DNA of 64,000 nucleotides from Escherichia phage vB_EcoP_EP32B (OR544955); one strand, 5' to 3'. Counted from the first letter of the stretch, positions 12,972 through 62,326 are shown. A program made the numbers and translations. Notes: generated from the letters alone by a model not told the origin.

Positions 12972-13566
12972 ATGAATAGTTCTAAAGTGTTTAATAGTCA
13001 AGCTCGTGCAGTAGGTGGTTTTGCTCATGCGATTAAAAATGACCAGATTAAAAACGAGCCTATGTTCTTTTGTATTTGATTCACGAGTCCACATGCTGAT
13101 GCCTGGTTGGTATCCTGCTATCCCAGGTTATCACCATGATGACGTACCACGCCCGGATATTCCGGTTGGTCAACATTTTATTACTGCAGGACAACCTGAC
13201 TATGACAATCCTCGCTATTTGTCTGAACATATTCTTGGTCTTGTTAACGCTGATGTGTGTCCTACTCATTTTGCAACAGGAACTGCGGAGTTCAGTCAGA
13301 TTCCTGATGGCGAACTTATCTATCGCCAGTGGCACAAAGAAGTCCTCGAAAAAATCGAAAAAGGCGAACTAGAGAAATGGGAAGCTCCAGACCGTACTCT
13401 TCTTCAGTTTGATTGGCAAACATGGCACACTGGTTCTCGTGCAATTAGTAATGGATGGCGTTGGTTCGGACGTGTATCTCGTAATACAGACCGAGTTAAA
13501 AAGATTACCAATGAAATTCGCGTCAATGCCCAAGTTTATCTGGAATTCCCTATGGAAGGCTGGTAA
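12972..13566 (+). pseudogene. hypothetical gene apparently split by a frameshift
   Basis: ATG 12972 with GAGGAAAA Shine-Dalgarno opens a 34-codon ORF that stops about 13076; the 183-codon ORF 13015..13566 continues in the +1 frame across A5 runs. Confidence 0.4.
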
Positions 13567-31127: not shown

Positions 31128-31601
31128 ATGTTATTATCAGGCGCAAAATATAAAGAAGAAAAACAAAAATTTTATGATGCACAGAATGGTAAGTGTCCTA
31201 TTTGCCACCGTGAATTAGACCCTGATGTTCAAGGTAACCATCTTGACCACGACCATGAATTAAACGGGCCAAAAGCCGGTAGAGTTCGTGGGTTACTATG
31301 TAACCTGTGCAATGCAGCAGAAGGTCAAATGAAGCATAAGTTCAACCGTTCTGGTCTTAAAGGTCAAAACGTTGACTACCTCGAATGGCTTGAAGCTCTT
31401 CTTGCTTATTTGAAACAAGATTATTCTGATAATAATATCCATCCTAATTTTGTTCCAGACAAAACTAAAGAGTTCTCAAGACTAGGTAAAGAGGAAATGA
31501 TGGCCGAGATGCTTCAAAGAGGATTTGAATATAATGAATCTGATACTAAAACACAATTAATAGCTTCATTCAAAAAGCAGCTTAGAAAGAGTTTAAAATG
31601 A
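31128..31601 (+). CDS. 49: endonuclease VII (Holliday junction resolvase) gp49
   Basis: MLLSGAKYKEEKQKFYDAQNGKCPICHRELDPDVQGNHLDHDHELNGP..., matches recalled T4 endo VII. Confidence 0.95.
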   Translation: MLLSGAKYKEEKQKFYDAQNGKCPICHRELDPDVQGNHLDHDHELNGPKAGRVRGLLCNLCNAAEGQMKHKFNRSGLKGQNVDYLEWLEALLAYLKQDYSDNNIHPNFVPDKTKEFSRLGKEEMMAEMLQRGFEYNESDTKTQLIASFKKQLRKSLK

Positions 31602-33415
31602 AAATTGAAAAAGAAATTGAAGGATTAATTCGTAAAACTAATAAAGATCTTTTAAACGAGAATGCTAATAAAGATTCTCGTGTTTTTCCAACTCAACGGG
31701 ACCTTATGGCTGGTATTGTGTCTAAGCACATTGCCAAAAATATGGTCCCGTCTTTTATTATGAAAGCGCATGAAAGTGGAATTATCCACATGCATGATAT
31801 TGATTATTCTCCTGCTCTTCCGTTTACTAATTGTTGTTTAGTCGATTTAAAGGGGATGCTTGAGAACGGATTTAAATTAGGCAATGCTCAAATTGAAACG
31901 CCTAAATCGATTGGTGTTGCTACTGCAATTATGGCACAAATTACTGCACAAGTTGCTTCACATCAGTATGGCGGAACTACATTTGCAAATGTCGATAAAG
32001 TTCTTTCTCCTTATGTTAAACGCACATACGCTAAACATGTTGAAGATGCGGAAAAATGGCAAATCGCTGATGCGTTGAATTATGCTCAATCCAAAACAGA
32101 AAAAGATGTCTATGACGCGTTCCAAGCTTATGAATATGAAGTAAATACTCTCTTTAGTTCAAATGGGCAAACGCCTTTTGTAACAATTACATTTGGTACG
32201 GGAACCGACTGGACTGAACGAATGATTCAGAAGGCAATTCTTAAAAACCGCATTAAAGGTCTTGGTCGTGATGGAATAACTCCTATTTTCCCTAAGCTTG
32301 TTATGTTTGTTGAAGAAGGTGTTAATCTTTATAAAGATGATCCGAACTATGATATTAAGCAGCTTGCTCTAGAGTGTGCAAGTAAAAGGATGTATCCTGA
32401 CATTATTTCGGTTAAGAATAATAAAGCTATTACCGGTTCTTCAATTCCAGTTTCTCCAATGGGTTGCCGTAGTTTCTTGGGCGTATGGAAAGATTCGACT
32501 GGTAATGAAATTCTTGATGGACGTAATAATCTCGGTGTTGTAACGCTGAATCTTCCTCGAATTGCGTTAGATTCTTATATTGGAACACAATTTAACGAAC
32601 AGAAATTTGTTGAATTATTCAATGAACGAATGGATTTGTGTTTTGAAGCATTGATGTGTAGAATTAGTTCCTTAAAAGGAGTTAAAGCGACTGTTGCTCC
32701 TATTCTTTACCAAGAAGGTGCATTCGGGGTTCGTCTTAAACCCGATGACGATATAATTGAGTTATTTAAAAACGGTAGAAGTTCAGTGTCCTTAGGATAC
32801 ATTGGTATTCACGAATTGAATATTCTTGTTGGTCGTGATATTGGACAAGAAATTTTAACTAAAATGAATGCTCTTCTTAAACAATGGACTGAAAGAACTG
32901 GGTTTGCTTTTAGCTTGTATTCTACACCTGCTGAAAACCTTTGTTATCGTTTCTGTAAACTAGACACAGAAAAATATGGAAGTGTAAAGGATGTTACTGA
33001 TAAAGGATGGTATACTAACAGTTTCCACGTTTCAGTAGAAGAAAATATTACTCCGTTTGAAAAGATTTCTCGTGAAGCACCATATCATTTCATTGCGACA
33101 GGTGGTCACATTTCTTATGTTGAACTTCCTGATATGAAAAACAACCTAAAAGGACTTGAGGCTGTATGGGATTATGCTGCACAGCATTTAGATTATTTTG
33201 GTGTTAATATGCCAGTAGATAAATGTTTTACATGTGGAAGTACCCATGAAATGACTCCGACTGAAAATGGATTTGTTTGTTCTATTTGTGGAGAAACTGA
33301 TCCTAAAAAGATGAACACAATAAGAAGAACATGCGGCTATTTGGGGAATCCGAACGAACGAGGATTTAATCTCGGCAAAAATAAAGAAATCATGCATAGG
33401 GTTAAACACCAATGA
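31598..33415 (+). CDS. nrdD: anaerobic ribonucleoside-triphosphate reductase NrdD
   Basis: 605 aa contiguous ORF; C-terminal Cys cluster CFTCGSTHE...CSICG and glycine-radical region. Confidence 0.95.
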   Translation: MKIEKEIEGLIRKTNKDLLNENANKDSRVFPTQRDLMAGIVSKHIAKNMVPSFIMKAHESGIIHMHDIDYSPALPFTNCCLVDLKGMLENGFKLGNAQIETPKSIGVATAIMAQITAQVASHQYGGTTFANVDKVLSPYVKRTYAKHVEDAEKWQIADALNYAQSKTEKDVYDAFQAYEYEVNTLFSSNGQTPFVTITFGTGTDWTERMIQKAILKNRIKGLGRDGITPIFPKLVMFVEEGVNLYKDDPNYDIKQLALECASKRMYPDIISVKNNKAITGSSIPVSPMGCRSFLGVWKDSTGNEILDGRNNLGVVTLNLPRIALDSYIGTQFNEQKFVELFNERMDLCFEALMCRISSLKGVKATVAPILYQEGAFGVRLKPDDDIIELFKNGRSSVSLGYIGIHELNILVGRDIGQEILTKMNALLKQWTERTGFAFSLYSTPAENLCYRFCKLDTEKYGSVKDVTDKGWYTNSFHVSVEENITPFEKISREAPYHFIATGGHISYVELPDMKNNLKGLEAVWDYAAQHLDYFGVNMPVDKCFTCGSTHEMTPTENGFVCSICGETDPKKMNTIRRTCGYLGNPNERGFNLGKNKEIMHRVKHQ

Positions 33416-33882
33416 ATTATGATAGATTTTATCCTTGCGATTTTGTGAATGGCCCTGGTTGCAGGGTCGTTCTTTTCGTTACGGGTTGTTTGCATAAATG
33501 CGAAGGGTGTTATAATAAATCAACATGGAATGCTAGAAATGGTACTCCATTCACTGGAGAGACACTAGAACAATTAATTGAATGTTTGAATAATGATTAT
33601 ATAGAAGGATTGACTATAACCGGAGGAGACCCTCTCTATCCTGATAACCGAGATGTTATTCATCGCATTGCTCAAACAGTAAAAAATCTTTATCCTAATA
33701 AAAGCATTTGGTTGTGGACAGGATACAAGTTTGAAGATATTAAACAACTAGAAATGCTTAAATATGTTGATGTTATTATTGATGGGAAGTATGAGAAAAA
33801 TCTTCCGACTAAAAAGCTGTGGCGAGGATCAGATAATCAGCGACTTTGGTCAAATACCGATGGGGTGTGGAAACATGATTAA
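33412..33882 (+). CDS. nrdG: anaerobic RNR activating enzyme NrdG (radical SAM)
   Basis: CLHKCEGCYN radical-SAM cysteine motif. Confidence 0.9.
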   Translation: MNYDRFYPCDFVNGPGCRVVLFVTGCLHKCEGCYNKSTWNARNGTPFTGETLEQLIECLNNDYIEGLTITGGDPLYPDNRDVIHRIAQTVKNLYPNKSIWLWTGYKFEDIKQLEMLKYVDVIIDGKYEKNLPTKKLWRGSDNQRLWSNTDGVWKHD

Positions 33883-45072: not shown

Positions 45073-47757
45073 ATGAAAGAATTTTACTTAACGGTTGAAC
45101 AGATTGGTGATTCAATTTTTGAACGTTACATCGATTCTAATGGCCGTGAACGTACTCGTGAAGTAGAATATAAACCATCACTGTTTGCTCATTGTCCAGA
45201 AAGTCAGGCTACGAAATATTTCGATATCTACGGTAAGCCGTGTACTCGTAAGTTGTTCGCTAATATGCGTGATGCCTCCCAATGGATTAAACGTATGGAA
45301 GATATCGGACTTGAAGCACTTGGCATGGACGATTTCAAATTGGCGTATTTGTCTGACACTTATAACTATGAAATCAAATACGACCATACAAAAATTCGTG
45401 TGGCTAACTTCGACATCGAAGTAACATCTCCGGACGGGTTCCCTGAGCCGTCACAAGCAAAACATCCGATTGATGCTATCACCCATTATGACTCAATTGA
45501 CGACAGGTTCTACGTATTTGATCTATTGAATTCTCCATATGGTAATGTAGAAGAATGGTCTATCGAAATTGCAGCTAAGCTTCAAGAACAAGGTGGTGAT
45601 GAAGTTCCATCCGAAATTATCGATAAAATCATTTATATGCCGTTCGATAACGAAAAAGAATTGTTGATGGAATATCTCAACTTCTGGCAACAGAAAACTC
45701 CTGTCATTTTGACTGGATGGAACGTTGAGTCATTTGATATTCCATATGTGTATAACCGAATCAAGAATATTTTTGGCGAATCTACTGCGAAACGTTTATC
45801 ACCACATCGTAAAACTCGTGTTAAAGTTATCGAAAACATGTATGGTTCTCGTGAAATCATTACATTGTTCGGTATCTCTGTTCTTGATTATATTGACCTT
45901 TACAAAAAATTCTCTTTTACCAATCAACCGTCGTATTCTCTGGATTACATTTCAGAATTTGAATTGAACGTTGGTAAACTGAAATACGACGGTCCTATTT
46001 CTAAACTTCGTTATAACATCATCGACGTATATCGTGTATTGCAAATTGATGCTAAACGCCAGTTCATTAACTTGAGTTTGGACATGGGTTATTATGCTAA
46101 GATACAGATTCAATCTGTGTTTAGCCCAATTAAAACATGGGATGCTATTATTTTTAATAGCCTTAAAGAACAAAACAAGGTGATTCCACAAGGTCGTTCG
46201 CATCCAGTTCAACCTTACCCGGGTGCTTTTGTTAAGGAACCTATTCCAAATCGATACAAATATGTAATGAGTTTCGACCTTACATCTCTGTATCCAAGTA
46301 TTATTCGCCAAGTGAATATTAGCCCGGAAACAATAGCAGGAACGTTTAAAGTAGCTCCACTGCATGATTATATTAACGCAATCGCTGAACGTCCTTCAGA
46401 TGTGTACAGTTGCTCTCCTAACGGCATGATGTATTATAAAGACCGTGACGGTGTTGTTCCAACTGAAATCACTAAGGTCTTTAATCAACGTAAAGAACAT
46501 AAAGGTTATATGCTTGCAGCTCAACGTAATGGTGAAATAATTAAAGAGGCATTGCATAATCCTAATCTTTCTGTTGACGAACCATTAGATGTTGATTATC
46601 GTTTCGACTTCAGCGATGAGATTAAAGAAAAGATTAAAAAGTTGTCTGCTAAATCTCTTAATGAAATGTTGTTTAGAGCTCAACGTACTGAAGTTGCAGG
46701 TATGACTGCACAGATTAACCGTAAATTGCTTATCAACTCACTTTATGGTGCACTTGGAAACGTTTGGTTCCGTTATTATGATTTGCGTAATGCTACTGCA
46801 ATCACAACATTCGGACAAATGGCTTTACAGTGGATTGAACGTAAAGTTAATGAATATCTGAATGAAGTTTGCGGTACAGAAGGTGAAGCTTTCGTTCTTT
46901 ATGGTGATACAGACTCTATTTACGTATCTGCTGATAAAATTATCGATAAGGTTGGTGAATCTAAATTCCGTGATACCAACCATTGGGTAGACTTCTTAGA
47001 TAAGTTCGCTCGTGAACGTATGGAACCTGCTATTGATAGAGGTTTCCGTGAAATGTGCGAATACATGAATAATAAGCAACATTTGATGTTCATGGACCGA
47101 GAAGCTATCGCTGGTCCTCCGCTCGGTTCTAAAGGTATTGGTGGATTTTGGACTGGTAAGAAACGTTATGCATTAAACGTGTGGGATATGGAAGGTACTC
47201 GTTACGCTGAGCCTAAACTCAAAATCATGGGTCTAGAGACTCAGAAATCTTCGACACCTAAAGCAGTACAGAAAGCTCTTAAAGAATGTATTCGTCGTAT
47301 GCTTCAAGAAGGTGAAGAATCATTACAAGAATATTTTAAAGAGTTTGAAAAAGAATTCCGTCAATTGAATTATATTAGCATCGCGTCGGTATCTTCTGCG
47401 AATAACATTGCTAAATATGATGTCGGTGGATTCCCTGGCCCCAAATGTCCGTTCCATATTCGTGGAATTCTGACATATAACCGAGCTATCAAAGGTAATA
47501 TCGATGCACCGCAAGTTGTAGAAGGTGAAAAAGTATATGTTCTGCCTTTACGTGAAGGAAACCCATTCGGTGATAAATGTATCGCATGGCCTTCTGGTAC
47601 GGAAATCACTGATTTAATCAAAGATGATGTACTTCATTGGATGGACTACACGGTTCTCCTTGAGAAGACATTTATTAAACCACTTGAAGGATTCACATCA
47701 GCAGCTAAACTCGATTACGAGAAGAAAGCATCTCTGTTCGATATGTTTGATTTTTGA
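45073..47757 (+). CDS. 43: DNA polymerase gp43 (family B)
   Basis: 894 aa; exonuclease motif FDIEV, polymerase motifs DxxSLYPS and YGDTDS. Confidence 0.95.
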   Translation: MKEFYLTVEQIGDSIFERYIDSNGRERTREVEYKPSLFAHCPESQATKYFDIYGKPCTRKLFANMRDASQWIKRMEDIGLEALGMDDFKLAYLSDTYNYEIKYDHTKIRVANFDIEVTSPDGFPEPSQAKHPIDAITHYDSIDDRFYVFDLLNSPYGNVEEWSIEIAAKLQEQGGDEVPSEIIDKIIYMPFDNEKELLMEYLNFWQQKTPVILTGWNVESFDIPYVYNRIKNIFGESTAKRLSPHRKTRVKVIENMYGSREIITLFGISVLDYIDLYKKFSFTNQPSYSLDYISEFELNVGKLKYDGPISKLRYNIIDVYRVLQIDAKRQFINLSLDMGYYAKIQIQSVFSPIKTWDAIIFNSLKEQNKVIPQGRSHPVQPYPGAFVKEPIPNRYKYVMSFDLTSLYPSIIRQVNISPETIAGTFKVAPLHDYINAIAERPSDVYSCSPNGMMYYKDRDGVVPTEITKVFNQRKEHKGYMLAAQRNGEIIKEALHNPNLSVDEPLDVDYRFDFSDEIKEKIKKLSAKSLNEMLFRAQRTEVAGMTAQINRKLLINSLYGALGNVWFRYYDLRNATAITTFGQMALQWIERKVNEYLNEVCGTEGEAFVLYGDTDSIYVSADKIIDKVGESKFRDTNHWVDFLDKFARERMEPAIDRGFREMCEYMNNKQHLMFMDREAIAGPPLGSKGIGGFWTGKKRYALNVWDMEGTRYAEPKLKIMGLETQKSSTPKAVQKALKECIRRMLQEGEESLQEYFKEFEKEFRQLNYISIASVSSANNIAKYDVGGFPGPKCPFHIRGILTYNRAIKGNIDAPQVVEGEKVYVLPLREGNPFGDKCIAWPSGTEITDLIKDDVLHWMDYTVLLEKTFIKPLEGFTSAAKLDYEKKASLFDMFDF

Positions 47758-47797
47758 TATAATGCCAAGGACGGCCAACTAATTAAATGAGAGAAAT

Positions 47798-48273
47798 ATG
47801 AAAACTACTCCTATTACTATCGCTATTGACGCAATCATAAAACAAGCTTCTTCTTTGGCCGCTATGGCCAAAGTAATTAGTCAAAACCCTGCTCGTTATA
47901 ATGCTATTCTAGAAACTCTTCGACGCCCTGGACTGAGTAATTATGAAAGTCGTGTAATTATTACAGGTGTTGGTAAGAACGCTAATATCGCAACTAAAGC
48001 TTCCGAGACATTTGCTTCACTCGGTATCCCGAGTATGTACTTGAACACTGGGCATTATTCTCACGGTGATGCAGGATTCATTGCGCCTAATGAGGCATCG
48101 CGGTAGAGGTTGATGAGAATTCTCTGGCTCCGACAATGTCTACTACATTGTTGTTAGCGCTTATCGATACGTTCGCTATCAACCTTTCGTCTGAACGTGG
48201 ATTTACCTCTAATGATTTCCTTAAGTTCCATCCAGGCGGTGCACTAGGTGCCATGTTACGAGGCGAACAATGA
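47798..48273 (+). pseudogene. SIS-domain sugar-phosphate isomerase (arabinose-5-phosphate isomerase KdsD/GutQ-like), disrupted
   Basis: N-terminal fragment RVIITGVGKNANIATKASETFASLGIPSMYLNTGHYSHGDAGFI stops at 48106; a different frame encodes the SIS C-terminus LAPTMSTTLLLALIDTFAINL...FHPGGALGAMLRG; central segment missing. Confidence 0.6.
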
Positions 48274-48413
48274 AAGCAATAACAATAGGACTTTTACTAT
48301 TGATGCTTGTCATGACTATCTACTGGAGCTTAACGGCTCCGGTAATGATTCCAACACTTGTAATTGGATGGATTATGATTGGACTACAAGCAAAGTATGA
48401 ATGCTTTAACTAG
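48270..48413 (+). CDS. small hydrophobic membrane peptide (47 aa)
   Basis: MKAITIGLLLLMLVMTIYWSLTAPVMIPTLVIGWIMIGL; ATGA overlap; below track cutoff. Confidence 0.35.
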   Translation: MKAITIGLLLLMLVMTIYWSLTAPVMIPTLVIGWIMIGLQAKYECFN

Positions 48414-48454
48414 AATAGTGTACAATACACCTACTTACCAATGAGGACTTCAAC

Positions 48455-50140
48455 ATGAAAAAAGCTGTTATTCTTGGTGCTGGACTGGCAACTCGTTTGT
48501 ATCCAATAACGCATCATATTCCAAAAGTTCTTGTGAACTATAAACAAGACACTATTCTGAGCAATTTGTATACAATTTATTCTGACCTTGGCGCAGATGA
48601 AATTATTGTAGTAGTTCATTCAAAATTTGCTGAAACTGTTCGAGCTTATTGTGAGCAAGAAGGGTTCAATGTGACTATTCGTACAGTTGATGAAGCGTAT
48701 GGTTCTGCTTATGCTCTTGCTAAATTACACAAAGATTTAGATGGCCATAACGTAATTGTTAACTGGTGTGATATTATTCCTGATTTTGGTTCATGGTCTT
48801 GGAATGTTAATGCAATCTATGTTAAGGGTGACGAATGTCGATATAATTTTGACGGTGAAAATATCACTAACGTAGGTTCAACAGGTGGTAATGTTGTAGG
48901 AATTTATCAGTTCAAAGACTGGGAATTCTACATGGGTTCTACTGATGAGGAAATTCACGAATACTGCAAAGGTCGTGATTTCGTAGAATTCCTTTACGGC
49001 AGCGCATTCAATAAATCAGAGCTTATGAATCTAATTGATTTAGGTGATATGCCTAAACTTGAAAAAGCTCATGAAGTTCGTGAACTTAATCGTAGTTTTA
49101 ATGCAGTTGAAATTGGTGAAGAAACTGTAACTAAATTCGCATTAACCGAACAAGGTCGAGCTCTTCAAAAAGATGAGATTTCATGGTATTTGAAAGTGAA
49201 ATCAGATTCAGTTCCTCAGTTAGTTTCGGTAAATGAAAATAATTTTGAAATGGAACGCATTAAAGGTAAGCCGGCATTTGAATATATTAAATCCAAATCA
49301 AGTCTTGCTCGTCCACAAATTGTTGATGCAATTTTAGATGCACTGAAATTCAGCACAGACACTTATTTTGTAAGTCCTGAAACTGTTCGTCGTGATTTCA
49401 CTAAAGAATTCTATACGAAAGTTATTGATCGTTGTGAAAGCATTCAGCCATTGATTGATTCATTTGGTAAAATCACACACGTGAACTACACTAAGATTGG
49501 ACGTCTGAAGCCAATGCTGAAGCAAGCTTTAGAACATCTTATTCGTTATCATACCCGTTCTCAGGGACAGTACTCTGTTATTCATGGTGACCCGAACTTC
49601 AGTAATACTATGATTACTGATAATGGCGAAGTCAAGTTTATCGACCCTCGTGGATATTTTGGCGAAACCAAGATTTACGGGCCAAAATTGTACGATGAAG
49701 CTAAAGTGCTTTATGCTGTTTCAGGTTATGATGAATTCAACGCTAATCCGACCTGGGGACAGTTTACTATTGACGAAACAACTTGTAATGTGACTATTAA
49801 CATCAATCCATTAGTTTACAAATATGGAAAGATGAGTTCGTTTAACGAGTATCATCATTTGGCTGTAGCAATTATCTGGATTGCATTAGGTGGTTATTTC
49901 AAGAATAATCCACTTAAAGCGGTAGCCGCATATTATAAAGGTATGGAACTTCTGACTAAGCAATTACGTAACATGGGCCGTGTACTTCAAGACGGCTCTA
50001 TTAGTTATGACGTAGCAGAACCTGTAACGGCTACTCTGATTACAAAAAATCCTGGTAAATGGGTACTAACTGATAAAGAAACTGGTGTTTCTTATCGTCC
50101 AATCGGTGGCGATATCACTCATCAATGGGAACGAATCTAA
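48455..50140 (+). CDS. bifunctional sugar-phosphate nucleotidyltransferase / sugar kinase
   Basis: N-terminus VILGAGLATRLYP (NTP-transferase G-x-G-x-R signature); C-terminal kinase motifs HGDPNFSNTMI and FIDPRGYFG (aminoglycoside/choline kinase-like fold); 561 aa. Confidence 0.75.
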   Translation: MKKAVILGAGLATRLYPITHHIPKVLVNYKQDTILSNLYTIYSDLGADEIIVVVHSKFAETVRAYCEQEGFNVTIRTVDEAYGSAYALAKLHKDLDGHNVIVNWCDIIPDFGSWSWNVNAIYVKGDECRYNFDGENITNVGSTGGNVVGIYQFKDWEFYMGSTDEEIHEYCKGRDFVEFLYGSAFNKSELMNLIDLGDMPKLEKAHEVRELNRSFNAVEIGEETVTKFALTEQGRALQKDEISWYLKVKSDSVPQLVSVNENNFEMERIKGKPAFEYIKSKSSLARPQIVDAILDALKFSTDTYFVSPETVRRDFTKEFYTKVIDRCESIQPLIDSFGKITHVNYTKIGRLKPMLKQALEHLIRYHTRSQGQYSVIHGDPNFSNTMITDNGEVKFIDPRGYFGETKIYGPKLYDEAKVLYAVSGYDEFNANPTWGQFTIDETTCNVTININPLVYKYGKMSSFNEYHHLAVAIIWIALGGYFKNNPLKAVAAYYKGMELLTKQLRNMGRVLQDGSISYDVAEPVTATLITKNPGKWVLTDKETGVSYRPIGGDITHQWERI

Positions 50141-50526
50141 TGCACCGTGTAGAAAACATGCTTAATCTTTGTTTTGATGTCGATGATTGTATAACAGAGT
50201 GGAATAACAATCGTGATTACGTGAACTTCAAACCAGACGTCGAAATGGTGACTGCTATTAATGCCCTGTATGATGCAGGGCATACCATAACGCTTTACAC
50301 TGCTCGTGGTATGAAGTCAGTAGGTCCTGGTCGTATAGCAATTGACATTCTCCCAAGTCTGATTCAGAACTTGGAAAACATTGGTTTGAAGTACCATAAT
50401 TTGCTAACACATAAACCAGTATATGATTGGATTATCGACGACAAAGCTATGCGTCCCGACGAATTCAAAGCTCTTATGAATAAAGGCGAATTCGAAACAT
50501 TTAAATCATATAAACCGAATCTATAA
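50140..50526 (+). CDS. HAD-superfamily phosphatase
   Basis: motif I FDVDDCIT, later DWIIDDK; start MHRVEN overlapping upstream stop. Confidence 0.6.
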   Translation: MHRVENMLNLCFDVDDCITEWNNNRDYVNFKPDVEMVTAINALYDAGHTITLYTARGMKSVGPGRIAIDILPSLIQNLENIGLKYHNLLTHKPVYDWIIDDKAMRPDEFKALMNKGEFETFKSYKPNL

Positions 50527-50582
50527 TAATTTAAGTAAGACCTGCAAAAACCATCGCATAAATTAACGTGAGATGCAAAAAA

Positions 50583-51743
50583 ATGAATACTTTTAAAATT
50601 GGAACGAATTTTGATTTAGCTCTTCTTGATAAAATCGTAGAGCTCAATAAAACTTATCCTAATAGCTTGATAAACGAAGTATACGGCTCTACAAGAGAAA
50701 TGGCTTTTGTAGCAGCCAGACCTGATTTTAGGCTTCCTGACGTTGACAAAAAGATGTTAGAAGATTACGTTAAACGTTGTAACGAATTAGGTATTTGCTT
50801 TAACTATACACTCAACACGATAAATCCTGGTTCAAAAAGAGAACTAGTCGAGTGGAAGAAGAAAGCTATTCAGGATTATGTTCAGTATCTTTGGTCAATA
50901 GGCGTATGGCGTATTACTATCGCTAACCCTGTTGTTATGGAAATTGTTCGTGAAGTCAATAAAGACATTGAGATTGAAGTTTCAACAATTCTACATGTCG
51001 ATGCTGTAACTCAAATAAAATACTTGCATGACCAATATAATATCAAAAAGGTCTGCTGTGGAATTCATAAGAACCGTTCAGTTTCTTTCCTGAAGCGTGC
51101 AGCAGAGTTTTGCAATAAGAACAATATAATATTTGAAGTTCTTGTAAATGAGTTCTGTTCTAATGCTGGTAAAGGGTATACAACACATTGTAGCTATCGT
51201 GACTCTTGCTATATTTTCCATAGTACTGATGTTACAGCCGATGATGCTAAATCCTTAAACGGGTATCCTATGCAGCACTGTATTAAAGCTCGTGATACAG
51301 ACCCATTTAACTGGTTGAGAACTCGTTTTGTTCGTCCTCAAGATTTGAAACTTTATAATGATATTGGTATCACTCAATTCAAAGTTTCAGGACGTACAGG
51401 TAGCACAGACTACATTTTGAAAGTTCTTGAAGCATACGCTTCTGAAAAGTTTGAAGGTAATTTGTTAGAACTGTGGAAGCCTTTAGAGACTATTTTCACT
51501 CTTGAAAATGAAACTGAGTTTTCACATACAGTAAATATTGAAACCTCTTTGTTAGATGGCTTTTTAGAAAAAAGGTGGTTCAGACATCCAGATTTTGATT
51601 GTGCTAATGAAATCTGTGGATCAACGTGTACATATTGTGAAAGATATTATAAACGTCAATTATCTAAAAACGGGTTAGCAGAAAACTCTATATCTATTAT
51701 TGATATAACTAACTCTGATGACGCTTTGAGGTACCCGGAATGA
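50583..51743 (+). CDS. Cys-rich enzyme-like protein of unknown function (386 aa)
   Basis: large ORF inside the modification cluster; cysteine clusters CCGIHKN, EFCSNAGKGYTTHCSYRDSC and CANEICGSTCTYCE. Confidence 0.6.
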   Translation: MNTFKIGTNFDLALLDKIVELNKTYPNSLINEVYGSTREMAFVAARPDFRLPDVDKKMLEDYVKRCNELGICFNYTLNTINPGSKRELVEWKKKAIQDYVQYLWSIGVWRITIANPVVMEIVREVNKDIEIEVSTILHVDAVTQIKYLHDQYNIKKVCCGIHKNRSVSFLKRAAEFCNKNNIIFEVLVNEFCSNAGKGYTTHCSYRDSCYIFHSTDVTADDAKSLNGYPMQHCIKARDTDPFNWLRTRFVRPQDLKLYNDIGITQFKVSGRTGSTDYILKVLEAYASEKFEGNLLELWKPLETIFTLENETEFSHTVNIETSLLDGFLEKRWFRHPDFDCANEICGSTCTYCERYYKRQLSKNGLAENSISIIDITNSDDALRYPE

Positions 51744-51979
51744 TTTCTAGAAAAACTTTTAATCACCAACTTAATGAAGAGATTTTGACTATTAAAATTA
51801 ACACTAACGAACAAATTCTTAAAAAGGCCCTTATGGGCCTGTTTGAAACTAAAGCGGCTAAAGTGATTAAAGAACCTGTTCAATTGGAATACTACGCTGA
51901 TGCATTTCTTCATAGTGTTCTTGGAAGTATCGATGCTGAAGCTTTACGTTATATCAACATTGTCAAGAAATTCAAATAA
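51740..51979 (+). CDS. hypothetical protein (79 aa)
   Basis: ATGA overlap. Confidence 0.5.
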   Translation: MISRKTFNHQLNEEILTIKINTNEQILKKALMGLFETKAAKVIKEPVQLEYYADAFLHSVLGSIDAEALRYINIVKKFK

Positions 51980-52003
51980 GCTTTACGAATTGAGTATATA
52001 ATA
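51980..52003 (+). promoter_or_regulatory. promoter upstream of the hydroxymethylase-like gene
   Basis: GCTTTAC then GTATATAAT at about 17 bp spacing. Confidence 0.4.
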
Positions 52004-52021
52004 AATTGTATTGAGGTAAAC

Positions 52022-52738
52022 ATGGGAAAACATAACACAATGAAATATATCAAAGCCGCAGATTTTCAAACCGCATTTAAAGCAGTCAATCGTGAAATTT
52101 TAGAAAACCCGGAATTCGTAACTGATTCTCGTATTGGACGTTGTAATGAAATTGGGTCTATGACAGTAGTTGTTGACACTCCATCATCATTCAAAATGAC
52201 CGACCCGCGTATTAACCGCATCTCTTATGAATATGCCGAAGACTTCTGGAAGTTTATGATTTCTGGTGGTACTGACGCAGAAGAAGCGTTTAAGGCATAT
52301 CCTAATGTCGCTAAATTTATTTCTAAACCAAAATCAGATGCTTTGCCTGCAAACTTCAACACTTTCTATGGTCCTCGCATTGCGGCCCAATTACCAGCTC
52401 TTCTAAAAGAACTTAAAGAGAAGCCTAACTCCAGAAGAGTTGTGTTCCAAATTCTAGAAAGTTCTGATCAGGCTTTGCTTGATTCGGACGAAACGCTTGA
52501 ATATCCATGTACTGACTCAGTGACTTATTATATTCGTGACGGTAAGCTTTATACCCACTGTCATATGCGTTCCCAGAACTGTGCTGTTGTTATGCAGTTG
52601 GATTTTTATCTCCAAGGAAAATTACTTCATTATATCGCTAACGAATGCGGTGTAGAAGTTGGTGATTATACTCATACCATGGTAAGTGCCCATGTGTTTG
52701 AACGTGATTTTGATTATGTTAAAGGATTCCTTGACTAA
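52022..52738 (+). CDS. thymidylate synthase-fold enzyme, divergent deoxypyrimidine nucleotide hydroxymethylase (gene 42 position)
   Basis: YPCTDSVTYYIRDGKLYTHCHMRSQNCAVVMQLDFYLQ aligns with the catalytic Cys and MRSxD region of TS / dCMP hydroxymethylase; rest of protein unlike T4 gp42 as recalled. Confidence 0.7.
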   Translation: MGKHNTMKYIKAADFQTAFKAVNREILENPEFVTDSRIGRCNEIGSMTVVVDTPSSFKMTDPRINRISYEYAEDFWKFMISGGTDAEEAFKAYPNVAKFISKPKSDALPANFNTFYGPRIAAQLPALLKELKEKPNSRRVVFQILESSDQALLDSDETLEYPCTDSVTYYIRDGKLYTHCHMRSQNCAVVMQLDFYLQGKLLHYIANECGVEVGDYTHTMVSAHVFERDFDYVKGFLD

Positions 52739-53637
52739 TGGCTATTTTCCGCGTACCAATCTTGAGTATGCGGTCTTATGAAACTGGTCAGTATGCTATC
52801 CTTAAGGATGGCAACTTCCAACTTCATTTGCACCGTGCTAATCCGGGTGATGTGATTACATATCCACGTAATGCATCTGATATTAAAGAATGCGAACGTC
52901 TTTTTCCGGAATTTAAGTTTGTTCCATTATGGTATAAAGATAACGCGTATAACACTCGTAAATATTTCTGGTCTGAAAATGAATTTGTGGTTGATTCATT
53001 AATTGCTTATTATGATTGTGATTTTCTAATCACAGATATCACTGGTTATGATGGCGCTTTTGACGTAGAATTCAATTTCAATATCACTGCAGACCCTAAT
53101 AAACCACGTTTTTATATTGATGAATTCTTAAAAACTGATATGTTGTCGGTTAATCGTTCACTTCAAACTACTGTGTTGAATGAACGTCAAAAAGAAGTGC
53201 TGGTTAACGCAGGTGCAGATGGTAATAAGATTATCGTAACGCAGAAAGTTATACGTCCTTCCGTCATGCAGCGTCTTGTAGGTGATTTGGCTCCTATTCA
53301 TCTAGATGGTATTTTTCATCCATTTCGAATTAGTGACCCATGCTATCGTTTTGAACAAGTGGTTGAATGCGCAATTCAATTAGGTCAACCGCTTTATATA
53401 ACTGATCCAAATAATAGTTTCGACAGAAATAAGTATCCTGAAGAAGCGCTGATTCGAATTTTTAATCCAACTAAAACTGAGTACTATCAAATTCTTAAAG
53501 GACGTCCGAAGATTCAATATTTCGAAAATCCTGAAGAAGTATTCCATCCAGGTCTTGGTGAGTTCATCTACTTTAATGCTTTAATTTCTTCACCGTATAA
53601 TATACCTAAATACGAAGATGTCGTAATCGAGGAATAA
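52738..53637 (+). CDS. hypothetical protein (299 aa), candidate DNA sugar transferase by position
   Basis: occupies the slot after the hydroxymethylase where T4 carries beta-glucosyltransferase; no recognised motif. Confidence 0.5.
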   Translation: MAIFRVPILSMRSYETGQYAILKDGNFQLHLHRANPGDVITYPRNASDIKECERLFPEFKFVPLWYKDNAYNTRKYFWSENEFVVDSLIAYYDCDFLITDITGYDGAFDVEFNFNITADPNKPRFYIDEFLKTDMLSVNRSLQTTVLNERQKEVLVNAGADGNKIIVTQKVIRPSVMQRLVGDLAPIHLDGIFHPFRISDPCYRFEQVVECAIQLGQPLYITDPNNSFDRNKYPEEALIRIFNPTKTEYYQILKGRPKIQYFENPEEVFHPGLGEFIYFNALISSPYNIPKYEDVVIEE

Positions 53638-53638
53638 A

Positions 53639-54187
53639 ATGGCTAAAATTATTTTAGTAGACGGGCCGGATAATGCTGGTAAAACAACTTTCATTAATGA
53701 CATAATGGAAATTAGTGAAAGATATGTAAAGATTGATTTCCCTAAACGAACAGTTGATGGGCGTTTCGATGTTAAGTCTCGAAATGAAGTCGGCTGTTTC
53801 GAAACGATGTTGAATTATTTGGACCCTACTAAGATTTATCTGTTAGACCGTGGATATATTAGTAACTGGGTTTATGGACGTATTCGACAAGATGTGGACT
53901 CGGTTCTTGACGTTTATGAACAGGATTATGTTCGTCTTTGCCAAAACCATGATGTGTTCACAATTATTTTAACACGTAACGAAATGACTGAAAGTTTTGA
54001 AGACGACCTTATTACTTTGTCTTCATTCGGTTTTAATACAGTCATTTCATATTTTGAAGAGTTTGCAATTCATAACAAAATCCAAACGTATCAATTACTT
54101 AATCATGATGGTGCTAATAAAGTTATAGGATTTAACGCAAGCGAACGTAATAATTTGATTACAGAAATCATCAAATGGGCTCGTTAA
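53639..54187 (+). CDS. P-loop nucleoside/nucleotide kinase-like protein
   Basis: Walker A GPDNAGKTT at N-terminus, LLDRGY region; 182 aa. Confidence 0.65.
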   Translation: MAKIILVDGPDNAGKTTFINDIMEISERYVKIDFPKRTVDGRFDVKSRNEVGCFETMLNYLDPTKIYLLDRGYISNWVYGRIRQDVDSVLDVYEQDYVRLCQNHDVFTIILTRNEMTESFEDDLITLSSFGFNTVISYFEEFAIHNKIQTYQLLNHDGANKVIGFNASERNNLITEIIKWAR

Positions 54188-54204
54188 GAGCCATTTAAAG
54201 TTTT

Positions 54205-54232
54205 AAATGCTGTATAACCCTTAGTATATAAT
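54205..54232 (+). promoter_or_regulatory. possible MotA-dependent middle promoter for uvsX
   Basis: AAATGCTGTA element about 20 bp upstream of GTATATAAT. Confidence 0.3.
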
Positions 54233-54285
54233 CATCTTATCTTTTAAACATGAGTAAAATATAATGATGCCTATGGAAAAATACA

Positions 54286-55458
54286 ATGTCTGATTTAAAA
54301 TCTCGTCTGATTAAAGCTTCTACTTCTAAAATGACTGCAGACTTGACTAAGTCTAAGCTGTTTAATAATCGTGATGAAGTCCCTACTCGTATTCCGATGT
54401 TGAATATTGCATTAGGTGGTGCACTGAATGCCGGGTTGCAATCAGGCTTAACTATTTTTGCTGCTCCTTCTAAACACTTTAAAACGTTGTTTGGACTAAC
54501 TATGGTTGCAGCGTATATGAAGAAATATAAAGATGCAATCTGTTTGTTTTATGACTCAGAATTCGGTGCTTCGGAATCTTATTTTCGTTCAATGGGTGTT
54601 GATTTAGACCGTGTAGTTCATACTCCGATTCAATCTGTCGAACAACTTAAGGTTGATATGACTAATCAGCTTGACGCGATTGAACGCGGTGATAAAGTTA
54701 TTATCTTTATCGATTCAATCGGTAATACTGCATCTAAGAAAGAAACCGAAGATGCGTTGAACGAGAAAGTTGTAGGTGATATGTCTCGTGCTAAGGCACT
54801 TAAATCTCTGTTCCGCATTGTGACTCCTTATCTGACTATTAAAGATATTCCGTGTGTTGCAATTAACCATACTGCAATGGAAATTGGCGGACTATATCCT
54901 AAAGAGATTATGGGCGGTGGTACAGGTATTCTTTATTCTGCCAACACGGTATTTTTTATCTCTAAACGTCAGGTTAAAGAAGGTACAGAATTGACCGGTT
55001 ATGACTTTACGTTGAAAGCGGAAAAATCTCGTACAGTTAAAGAGAAATCTACTTTCCCGATCACGGTTAATTTTGATGGCGGTATTGACCCATTCAGTGG
55101 CTTGTTAGAAATGGCAACTGAAATTGGATTTGTTGTTAAGCCTAAAGCCGGGTGGTATGCTCGTGAATTCCTTGACGAAGAAACAGGTGAAATGATTCGT
55201 GAAGAAAAATCATGGCGTGCTAAAGCTACTGATTGTGTAGAATTCTGGGGACCTTTGTTTAAACACAAACCTTTCCGAGATGCAATTGAAACTAAATATA
55301 AACTAGGTGCTATCTCTTCTATTAAAGAAGTTGATGACGCTGTTAACGACCTTATTAATTGCAAAGCAACAACTAAAGTTCCGGTTAAAACTTCTGATGC
55401 TCCGTCTGCAGCAGATATAGAAAACGACCTTGACGAAATGGAAGATTTCGATGAATAA
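54286..55458 (+). CDS. uvsX: RecA-like recombinase UvsX
   Basis: 390 aa; MSDLKSRLIKASTSKMTADLTKSKLF, RecA-fold ATPase with acidic C-terminus. Confidence 0.95.
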   Translation: MSDLKSRLIKASTSKMTADLTKSKLFNNRDEVPTRIPMLNIALGGALNAGLQSGLTIFAAPSKHFKTLFGLTMVAAYMKKYKDAICLFYDSEFGASESYFRSMGVDLDRVVHTPIQSVEQLKVDMTNQLDAIERGDKVIIFIDSIGNTASKKETEDALNEKVVGDMSRAKALKSLFRIVTPYLTIKDIPCVAINHTAMEIGGLYPKEIMGGGTGILYSANTVFFISKRQVKEGTELTGYDFTLKAEKSRTVKEKSTFPITVNFDGGIDPFSGLLEMATEIGFVVKPKAGWYAREFLDEETGEMIREEKSWRAKATDCVEFWGPLFKHKPFRDAIETKYKLGAISSIKEVDDAVNDLINCKATTKVPVKTSDAPSAADIENDLDEMEDFDE

Positions 55459-58080: not shown

Positions 58081-58331
58081 GCAAATTAACTAAGGTTACT
58101 TTTATCGGTTGGTTTAAAAGCGGTGAGATGTTCACTAAAGATATCATGTTATCAGGTGATCGCGAAGAAATCGAGTGGGTTACGGTACAACTTGCTGAAG
58201 TGAACAAAGCATTAGTTAAAGCGTTTGTTAATGACGAGAAAGTTTTTGAAGCTGATTTCAAGTTTAAAATAGCTGTTTACAAGCCCCACATATTGTGTTA
58301 CTATCTTTCTATCAACTACAGAGGAAATTGA
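58077..58331 (+). CDS. hypothetical protein (84 aa)
   Basis: start MSKLTKVTFIGW after GAGGAAAT; ATGA overlap. Confidence 0.45.
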   Translation: MSKLTKVTFIGWFKSGEMFTKDIMLSGDREEIEWVTVQLAEVNKALVKAFVNDEKVFEADFKFKIAVYKPHILCYYLSINYRGN

Positions 58332-62011: not shown

Positions 62012-62326
62012 ATGGCGCACTTTAATGAATGTTCACAACTTATTTCTGGTGTTGATAAAGCAGAAGAAGCTTATTTTAATGCTCTGATTCACGAAGATAA
62101 AGACCCACTTCAGGTAATGCTTGATATGCAGAAATCTTTACAGGTTCGTCTGGCAAATGACAAGCCTGAACATAACAAACATCCTGATGAATTGGCTACT
62201 GCCGGTGATGTTGTTGATTGGCTGCGTAATCAGAAAGATTATATTGATGATGAATTCCGTGAACTGTTGACTTCACTTGGTGGTATGATTATAAATACAC
62301 CTGTAATTAAACAACAAAGGAGTTAA
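62012..62326 (+). CDS. 56: dCTP pyrophosphatase gp56-like (MazG-type), short form
   Basis: MAHFNECSQLISGVDKAEEAYF...ATAGDVVDWLRNQKDYIDDEFRELLTSLG; 104 aa, shorter than T4 gp56 as recalled. Confidence 0.65.
   Translation: MAHFNECSQLISGVDKAEEAYFNALIHEDKDPLQVMLDMQKSLQVRLANDKPEHNKHPDELATAGDVVDWLRNQKDYIDDEFRELLTSLGGMIINTPVIKQQRS
62290..62297 (+). promoter_or_regulatory. late promoter TATAAATA upstream of soc
   Basis: exact TATAAATA about 32 bp before soc ATG, within the 3-prime end of gene 56. Confidence 0.5.

Follow-up and report, generated by a model that had tools for sequence, protein, structure and literature searches.

Within the 64,000-nucleotide stretch of Escherichia phage vB_EcoP_EP32B DNA (OR544955), analysed as a whole and called here the window, the interval between the DNA polymerase gene (gp43) and the recombinase gene uvsX very probably represents the RB69-type arabinosyl-5-hydroxycytosine (ara-5hoC) DNA hypermodification cluster of the Mosigvirus T-even phages. 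This cluster is already published and characterised in phages RB69 and HY126, the window holds a near-identical copy of it, and, the pathway being published, the module itself adds no new biology. The new element is the lead offered by one of its genes, which encodes a U32-family iron-sulphur (Fe-S) protein and in sister genera is accompanied by a chorismate mutase gene: a concrete and cheaply testable hypothesis, oxygen-independent hydroxylation within the same pathway, can now be formulated for this protein.

The arabinosyl-5-hydroxycytosine cluster

The window phage is a Mosigvirus. Its cluster is bounded on the left by gp43 (45073..47757, 894 aa) and on the right by uvsX (54286..55458), lies, like all window features described below, on the + strand, and consists of densely packed open reading frames (ORFs) whose stop and start codons overlap or abut. 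All ORFs are present, and from gp43 to uvsX they follow the RB69 type: isomerase, small ORF, kinase/nucleotidyltransferase fusion, HAD phosphatase, U32 protein, small ORF, thymidylate synthase (TS) homolog, glycosyltransferase, and thymidylate kinase (TMK)-like protein. The same gene order is found in RB69, E. coli O157 typing phage 3 (O157tp3), Bas47, and about 150 other records. At the nucleotide level the region 47700-54300 is 97.8–98.5% identical from end to end to RB69, to the E. coli O157 typing phages 3, 6, and 13, and to Bas47, and about 150 further Mosigvirus records match it likewise, while the cluster proteins share 98–100% identity with those of the relatives. With respect to the RB69 gp45-gp55 / HY126 Afh cluster the genes, their order, the gp43-uvsX position, and the hydroxylase signature are the same at 97.8% nucleotide identity, and the only meaningful difference is a private frameshifting 160-bp deletion in the isomerase gene of the window. 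A horizontal arrival of the module with foreign composition was rejected, since its G+C content is the same as that of the flanks.

An initial annotation, made from the sequence alone, had described the ORFs at 47798-54187 between gene 43 and uvsX as a sugar-nucleotide and DNA hypermodification module. Family searches and the comparison with relatives confirmed that these ORFs are real and carry the named domains, that they combine an arabinose sugar-nucleotide branch with a TS-fold base enzyme of the RB69 type (by the 97.8–98.5% identity), and that the module takes the position of the T4 42/beta-gt slot. The domain search itself agreed in part, giving NTP_transferase, a weak APH, and Thymidylat_synt, with the HAD phosphatase recognised by TIGR01689 and not by Pfam, and with SIS recognised only in an intact isomerase orthologue. 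The presence of arabinose in RB69 DNA was described by Thomas in 2018, where this module was named as the likely source of UDP-arabinose (PMC6024577). In the RB69 GenBank record the genes of 561 aa and 299 aa are split by known sequencing errors (PMC13326640, PMC6024577); in the window both are intact, like in the resequenced RB69.

The key enzyme of the base branch is the 5-hydroxy-dCMP synthase with TS fold (52022..52738, 238 aa, RB69 gp48; Thymidylat_synt, 2e-15), which is dependent on flavin mononucleotide and O2 according to PMC13326640. [quoted passage not shown] As diagnostic of these hydroxylases the study named an Asn at ThyA position 169 (PMC13326640), which served as the criterion in the present analysis. 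The TS homolog of the window carries E160, C163, N186, and D194, the counterparts of ThyA L143E, C146, D169N, and N177D; the same four signature residues are found in eight relatives from other genera, and the Asp that is expected at ThyA position 169 in a T4 gp42-type hydroxymethylase is replaced by Asn186. Because of the D169N signature and the 98.7% identity to PDB 9iqc, 9ir2, and 9iqu, the protein is classed, by sequence, as a flavin/O2-dependent dCMP 5-hydroxylase and grouped with the hydroxylases rather than with the gp42-type hydroxymethylases.

These data change the chemistry proposed in the initial annotation, where a divergent dCMP hydroxymethylase was to give hydroxymethyl-pyrimidine DNA, with arabinosyl-hmC as the example, and the pentose was to pass from arabinose-5-phosphate (A5P) through free arabinose and arabinose-1-phosphate to an NDP-arabinose. 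Such a version agrees with the TS fold of the protein at 52022-52738, with the ara-hmC name given to the base in 2018 (PMC6024577), and with the label of dCMP hydroxymethylase which many GenBank records still keep for the TS homolog. However, nuclear magnetic resonance, mass spectrometry, and 18O2 experiments identified 5-hydroxycytosine with an ether-linked sugar (PMC13326640, PMC13390438), the earlier hmC assignment being explicitly called erroneous in 2026 (PMC13390438); the window enzyme has the D169N hydroxylase signature and 98.7% identity to the crystallised phage enzyme; and the sugar route established by He et al. (via PMC13326640) proceeds from A5P to arabinofuranose-1,5-bisphosphate (Araf-1,5-P2), Araf-1-P, and UDP-Araf. 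The hydroxymethylase version is already refuted for RB69, NP, and HY126, and for the window it is extremely improbable; the salvage route through free arabinose is abandoned together with it.

In the RB69-type pathway the gp56 dCTPase would supply dCMP, the TS homolog with flavin and O2 would convert it to 5-hydroxy-dCMP, kinases would bring the product to the triphosphate, and gp43 would then build the modified nucleotide into DNA. The kinases would include the gp1 homolog and possibly the TMK-like P-loop protein (53639..54187, 182 aa, RB69 gp45). The right end of the window corresponds approximately to RB69 position 13,449, and the homologs of RB69 gp3 and gp1 fall beyond the 64 kb. The 182-aa protein had been called a second P-loop kinase: the P-loop is there and is the only region of match, the similarity to dTMP kinase being marginal (TIGR00041 with 16.8 bits versus a cutoff of 83, PF02223 with E 0.14), and the PDB sequence search gave nothing useful. 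As the RB69 counterpart has TMK structural matches in Table 1 of PMC13326640, it is presumed to be a nucleotide kinase.

In the sugar branch the isomerase would convert ribulose-5-phosphate to A5P; the phage gene is broken in the window, and the host KdsD/GutQ can substitute for it. The next enzyme is the 561-aa A5P kinase / UDP-Araf nucleotidyltransferase (48455..50140, RB69 gp52:53, HY126 AfhE-like), assigned by its domains and 99.8% identical to that of O157tp3. The initial annotation was right in reading it as a nucleotidyltransferase-kinase fusion: the N-terminus matches NTP_transferase (8e-10), and the C-terminal half, in which the HxDxxxxN motif (loop HGDPNFSN) is intact, weakly resembles APH, fructosamine-kinase, and RIO proteins. 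The HAD phosphatase, also named correctly (50140..50526, 128 aa, RB69 gp51, AfhF-like), was without match in the Pfam search and was recognised by TIGR01689 (1.7e-13) and by PDB 9iqw (E 2.4e-86 across all 128 residues), 1xpj being also matched. Thus, the architecture and motifs of both the bifunctional kinase/pyrophosphorylase and the phosphatase are present in the window. In phage HY126, as summarised in PMC13326640, He et al. 2026 showed that AfhE phosphorylates A5P, giving Araf-1,5-bisphosphate, and at a later step produces UDP-Araf, and that the HAD enzyme AfhF takes the 5-phosphate off Araf-1,5-bisphosphate to give Araf-1-P. By the same scheme, in the window phage the kinase half of the 561-aa enzyme would produce Araf-1,5-bisphosphate from A5P, the phosphatase would convert it to Araf-1-P, and the nucleotidyltransferase half would form UDP-Araf from Araf-1-P and UTP.

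The transfer of the sugar is attributed to the 299-aa protein (52738..53637, RB69 gp46:47), for which neither the sequence-family searches (Pfam, NCBIfam) nor the PDB sequence search gave a significant match. Its structure prediction yielded a GT-B fold: the AlphaFold (AF2) model has a predicted local distance difference test (pLDDT) score of 95.3 and two Rossmann-like domains, the nearest folds are UDP-sugar GT4 / GT-B enzymes, and the best Foldseek matches are 9v0w, 3c4q (MshA), and 5ze7 with TM scores up to 0.63. The model thus supports with confidence a GT-B assignment and independently reproduces the published one, where gp46:47 and gp3 were designated by fold as GT-B arabinosyltransferases (PMC13326640). 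As the predicted first DNA arabinosyltransferase, proximal to the base, the protein would add the first arabinose onto the 5-OH, and the second arabinose would be added by the second transferase, the RB69 gp3 homolog. For near-identical proteins others have demonstrated that the hydroxylase is active and uses O2 and which reactions AfhE and AfhF catalyse, and have established the structure of the nucleoside; we infer the roles of the first transferase and of the TMK-like protein.

Two known systems are instructive for comparison. T4 gp42 with the alpha- and beta-glucosyltransferases shares with the RB69 type the genomic slot and the general scheme, in which dCMP is altered by a TS-fold enzyme ahead of replication and the sugar is attached to the DNA later by a GT-B enzyme; however, gp42 performs a folate-dependent hydroxymethylation, whereas in the RB69 type a flavin/O2 hydroxylation leads to an ether directly at C5, and the sugar donor is host UDP-glucose in T4 and UDP-arabinofuranose made by phage enzymes in the RB69 type. 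The hexosyl-5hoC system of Rhizobium phage RL38J1 and Pootjesviridae likewise relies on a TS-type hydroxylase with D169N, followed by glycosyltransferases for which 5hoC is the substrate, but the sugars are Galf (via UDP-galactopyranose mutase) and Glc, and both U32 and arabinose genes are absent.

The U32-family protein and the chorismate mutase neighbour

Two proteins of the module had been left without function in the initial annotation, as possible transferases or enzymes of an extra modification step. For the 299-aa protein the transferase option proved correct, while the Cys-rich 386-aa protein (50583..51743, RB69 gp50) turned out to be a U32-family Fe-S protein, with a Peptidase_U32 (PF01136) match of 7e-11 above the Pfam gathering score and the U32 TIM-barrel fold. 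It lies outside all four named subfamilies (RlhA/TrhP/UbiU/UbiV), the best NCBIfam match being UbiU with E 9e-4 and 18.5 bits versus a cutoff of 440, and the PDB sequence search gave nothing useful. Ten cysteines are conserved across 121 homologs with identity down to 47%, nine of them being invariant and C177 being kept at 98%. Among these, C209 and C233 fall, in the alignment, on experimentally established Fe-S ligands of UbiU (C176/C193) and UbiV (C180/C193) and on the equivalent residues of TrhP (C177/C193) and RlhA (C176/C192), and C192 and C203, invariant in the 121 homologs, lie in the region of the family [4Fe-4S] motif. At the C-terminus (residues 340-352) a CX4CX3CX2C motif is invariant in all 121 homologs and absent from UbiU and TrhP; it could represent a second metal or Fe-S site.

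The characterised members of the family are linked to O2-independent hydroxylation: RlhA acts on C5 of C2501 in 23S rRNA (ho5C2501), TrhP acts on C5 of U34 in tRNA (ho5U34), and UbiU/V act on the ubiquinone ring. These systems require prephenate, which was shown to be the oxygen donor, and TrhP-dependent hydroxylation in E. coli is restored by a monofunctional chorismate mutase (PMC5727448, PMC6599085, PMC10990095, bioRxiv 587956). An O2-dependent counterpart also exists for each system (TrhO; the flavin enzymes UbiI/H/F). The phage U32 protein shares with RlhA, TrhP, UbiU, and UbiV the PF01136 domain, the TIM barrel, and two cysteines at aligned Fe-S ligand positions, but differs from them in cysteine spacing, in the additional C-terminal CX4CX3CX2C, and in the presumed deoxynucleotide or DNA substrate. 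The chemistry of RlhA and TrhP, a C5-OH on a pyrimidine, is the chemistry that the phage needs, and sister phages encode a prephenate-making enzyme next door. In the literature searched, He 2026 and Mahler 2025 being outside it, no discussion of a chorismate mutase beside phage U32 was found and no published function of RB69 gp50, although those two papers may assign one.

Chorismate mutase makes prephenate, and its gene was found downstream of U32, as Pfam chorismate mutase type II (CM_2; 32.8–46.8 bits versus a cutoff of 27), in all seven other genera examined. These were represented by Winklervirus LC53, Kanagawavirus Entb_45, a Klebsiella phage, Mosugukvirus PM2, Bragavirus Pm5461, Tegunavirus phiR1-RT, and Shewanella phage Thanatos-2, the hosts of these T4-like phages being Serratia, Enterobacter, Klebsiella, Pectobacterium, Proteus, Yersinia, and Shewanella. 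In the extracted loci the chorismate mutase genes occupy L011:5660-6004, L012:6158-6397, L014:3658-3903, L015:3825-4067, L016:3899-4285, L017:3875-4168, and L018:3634-3891, and the ORF either overlaps the U32 stop directly or is separated from it by one small ORF (PM2, Pm5461, phiR1-RT). In Shewanella phage Thanatos the U32-chorismate mutase pair stands after TS-GT-TMK (GT, glycosyltransferase), apart from the TS gene, so that the two genes appear to travel together with each other and not with the TS gene. A tblastn search with one phage chorismate mutase found 51 phage records, compared with 68 non-Mosigvirus records that carry U32; all the matches listed were T4-like phages of Enterobacterales or Shewanella, and nearly all of them adjoin TS and/or U32 genes.

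Since the characterised U32 relatives are linked to O2-independent, prephenate-dependent hydroxylation, and since the prephenate-making chorismate mutase adjoins U32 in sister genera, an anaerobic route is suggested, in which the phage U32 protein may be a prephenate-dependent, O2-independent C5 hydroxylase of this pathway acting on deoxycytidylate or on DNA cytosine. This is a tentative proposal, a serious possibility that is held with slightly less than even confidence. The protein would form 5hoC in anoxic hosts and would be an anaerobic twin of the TS-fold enzyme, parallel to TrhP/TrhO and UbiUV/UbiIHF. Outside the cluster the phage carries both genes of the anaerobic ribonucleotide reductase, nrdD and nrdG, intact (31598..33882) for anaerobic dNTP supply, so it has the means to replicate in the absence of O2, although O2 is required by the only hydroxylase known for it. 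If true, the proposal would add a first nucleotide- or DNA-directed member to the U32 hydroxylases; it would explain why a phage carries a chorismate mutase and how an O2-requiring DNA modification is kept up in the anoxic gut, where phages could hypermodify their DNA without oxygen.

The distribution of the genes is of interest in this respect. U32 was found in 221 phage records, every host genus listed being a facultative anaerobe. For the TS hydroxylase the count was 373 records, of which 57 came from Acinetobacter phages, about 20 from phages of Rhizobium/Agrobacterium, and one from a Pseudomonas phage. These host genera were absent from the U32 matches, and the Maestro cluster, which was inspected, is without U32. 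In the Dhakavirus Escherichia phage dhaeg the cluster has the order pol-imm-hyp-AfhE-HAD-TMK-TS-GT-uvsX without isomerase, U32, and chorismate mutase, and therefore a phage of E. coli can dispense with these genes. A strict aerobe/anaerobe partition of U32 was rejected for the same reason, that Dhakavirus coliphages are without it.

Several observations weigh against the hydroxylase proposal. The absence of U32 from Dhakavirus coliphages comes despite their facultatively anaerobic host, and the cysteine spacing of the phage protein (CX10CX5CX23C) deviates from that of the family (CX6CX15CX3/4C). No chorismate mutase was detected in the 64-kb window with a hidden Markov model (HMM) derived from those of the other phages; Mosigviruses would therefore depend on host prephenate for the U32 route. 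The slot of the chorismate mutase is taken here by a 79-aa ORF (51740..51979, RB69 ORF049c), whose start overlaps the U32 stop (ATGA); as a diverged chorismate mutase it was rejected, Pfam and NCBIfam being negative and the hhalign probability being 0.1%, and its homologs were restricted to Mosigvirus in the homolog search. One Klebsiella phage has U32 without any small ORF. Finally, a different function was suggested for RB69 gp50 in PMC13326640, where it appears in Table 1 only, as a putative "sugar or heterocycle reductase", and the text does not mention U32, chorismate, or prephenate.

According to this label the U32 protein would be a redox accessory, a reductase of the sugar branch or of a sugar or heterocycle, and not a base hydroxylase, which agrees with the location of its gene between the phosphatase and the base-modifying genes and with one metagenomic locus where a U32 homolog stands among choline-kinase-like (kinase-like), DAHP/KDO8P-synthase-family (KdsA/DAHP-synthase-like), and epimerase genes. 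Nevertheless, the published three-enzyme UDP-Araf route leaves no step for U32, the arabinose genes occur without U32 in Acinetobacter phages (DLP3, Maestro) and in Dhakavirus, all characterised U32 relatives are linked to ring or C5 hydroxylation, the conserved partner is chorismate mutase rather than a sugar enzyme, and the metagenomic neighbours of U32 are mostly deoxynucleotide enzymes. A sugar-branch or reductase role is thus rather unlikely, and the anaerobic hydroxylase is the preferred proposal for this protein.

More than 100 metagenomic proteins with 47–58% identity belong to the same U32 clade, and the neighbourhoods of six loci, sampled from at least 263 genes of the clade, displayed three patterns. 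In two PolIII-alpha phages (contigs of 466 kb and 60 kb; L005:8001-9086 and L008:8776-9858) a U32 gene with 55–57% identity stands directly after a dCMP deaminase gene and near TMK, UDG, and SSB genes with no TS-type hydroxylase nearby; these loci may represent an undescribed 5-hydroxy-pyrimidine modification. In another metagenomic phage (L010:10001-12000, 15073-16179) U32 is followed by a TET-associated-type (TAGT) DNA glycosyltransferase (4e-8), a dUTPase/DCD protein, and UDP-galactopyranose mutase, and the locus looks like a hypermodification cluster with U32 in place of the TS homolog. In the third pattern (L006:8001-14360) two U32 genes are found together with radical-SAM/SPASM, NT5C, PnuC-like transporter, deoxynucleoside kinase, and nucleoside deoxyribosyltransferase genes. 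The last locus apparently originates from a cellulolytic anaerobe, as a dockerin/GH43 gene is nearby, and the U32 gene of L005 also lies near a radical-SAM/SPASM gene. The U32 homologs beside these deoxynucleotide or glycosyltransferase genes share 50–58% identity with the phage protein. Within 8–10 kb of the metagenomic U32 genes no TS hydroxylase was found, and none of the loci gave a chorismate mutase with the HMM mentioned above. If the hydroxylase proposal is true, the U32 clade in large metagenomic phages would comprise stand-alone base hydroxylases for undescribed hypermodifications.

The isomerase lesion and other private deletions

The SIS-domain isomerase had been reported as disrupted in the initial annotation, which proved accurate as a description of the sequence, while its biological meaning is doubtful. 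Compared with RB69 and O157tp3, 160 bp are missing at 48093/48094, which shifts the frame after approximately residue 99. As a result, the A5P isomerase (RB69 gp55 orthologue) is truncated to a 102-aa ORF (47798..48106) with about 99 in-frame residues of 211, and the C-terminus, residues ~153–211 of the orthologue, remains out of frame at 48094..48270 (tblastn frame 1). No intact phage A5P isomerase is thus present in the window. The N-terminal stump was without match in the Pfam search, and the orthologue from the closest relative, intact with 211 aa, matches SIS (1e-10) and KpsF/KdsD/GutQ (2e-32).

This lesion is not single. About ten private deletions of 27–594 bp were found in the window versus RB69 and O157tp3, at approximately 28076, 30239, 31088, 34225, 41515, 46012, 48093, 58260, 62288, and 62456, the one at 58260 being seen versus RB69 only. 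The microhomology at the junctions is mostly 0–2 bp, and six of eight lengths are not multiples of three. An 88-bp deletion causes a frameshift in gp46 (SbcC-like), a 594-bp deletion leaves residues 1–92 of 173 in the gp56 dCTPase (62012..62287), soc is truncated, and several small ORFs are broken. An in-frame gap at about 46012 deprives gp43 of residues 314–322 (ESNHQRYIS) of RB69 and O157tp3, which adjoin the YNIID (Exo III) motif on its N-terminal side.

Neither gene 46 nor gene 56 is dispensable in T4. Because about nine other private deletions accompany the isomerase deletion and hit also these two genes, the lesion is regarded as a probable artefact rather than an adaptive loss; probably, the deletions reflect collapsed, edited, or defective sequence. 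No observation spoke against the identification of the cluster. Against the cluster as a working pathway it should be mentioned that, with a broken isomerase and a truncated dCTPase, the genome as written might be non-functional.

The opposite explanation, that the isomerase is a genuine pseudogene and the phage uses the host KdsD/GutQ, is biologically reasonable. E. coli produces A5P with KdsD and GutQ, supplying it for the synthesis of KDO (3-deoxy-D-manno-octulosonic acid), the isomerase orthologue is recognised by NCBIfam models for KdsD and GutQ, and Dhakavirus coliphages naturally lack the isomerase gene with the rest of the cluster kept. For these reasons, the host supply of A5P and the Dhakavirus clusters working without the gene, a real loss would probably be tolerated. 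However, the deletion junction was found in none of 100 related phage records, and the other deletions, mostly with scanty microhomology and frame-breaking lengths, damage gp46, gp56, and soc as well, which makes a genuine pseudogene improbable in comparison with an artefact.

Small ORFs and database labels

Two small ORFs were missing from the initial annotation, the 79-aa ORF described above (51740-51979) and a 47-aa ORF (48270..48413, RB69 ORF054c), which is 100% identical to that of O157tp3. The latter sits between the isomerase and the kinase/nucleotidyltransferase genes; no discussion of it was found in the literature searched, and its counterpart in phage LC53 is annotated with a transmembrane segment.

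The logic by which the module was first recognised, that an isomerase with a kinase/nucleotidyltransferase, a phosphatase, and a TS fold indicates a glycosylated pyrimidine, was able to find a real system from raw sequence. GenBank labels within the cluster are inconsistent or misleading, the HAD phosphatase being designated as "phosphoheptose isomerase", AfhE as "GlmU", U32 as "peptidase", and the hydroxylase as "thymidylate synthase" or "dCMP hydroxymethylase", and the annotations of the cluster genes could now be corrected.

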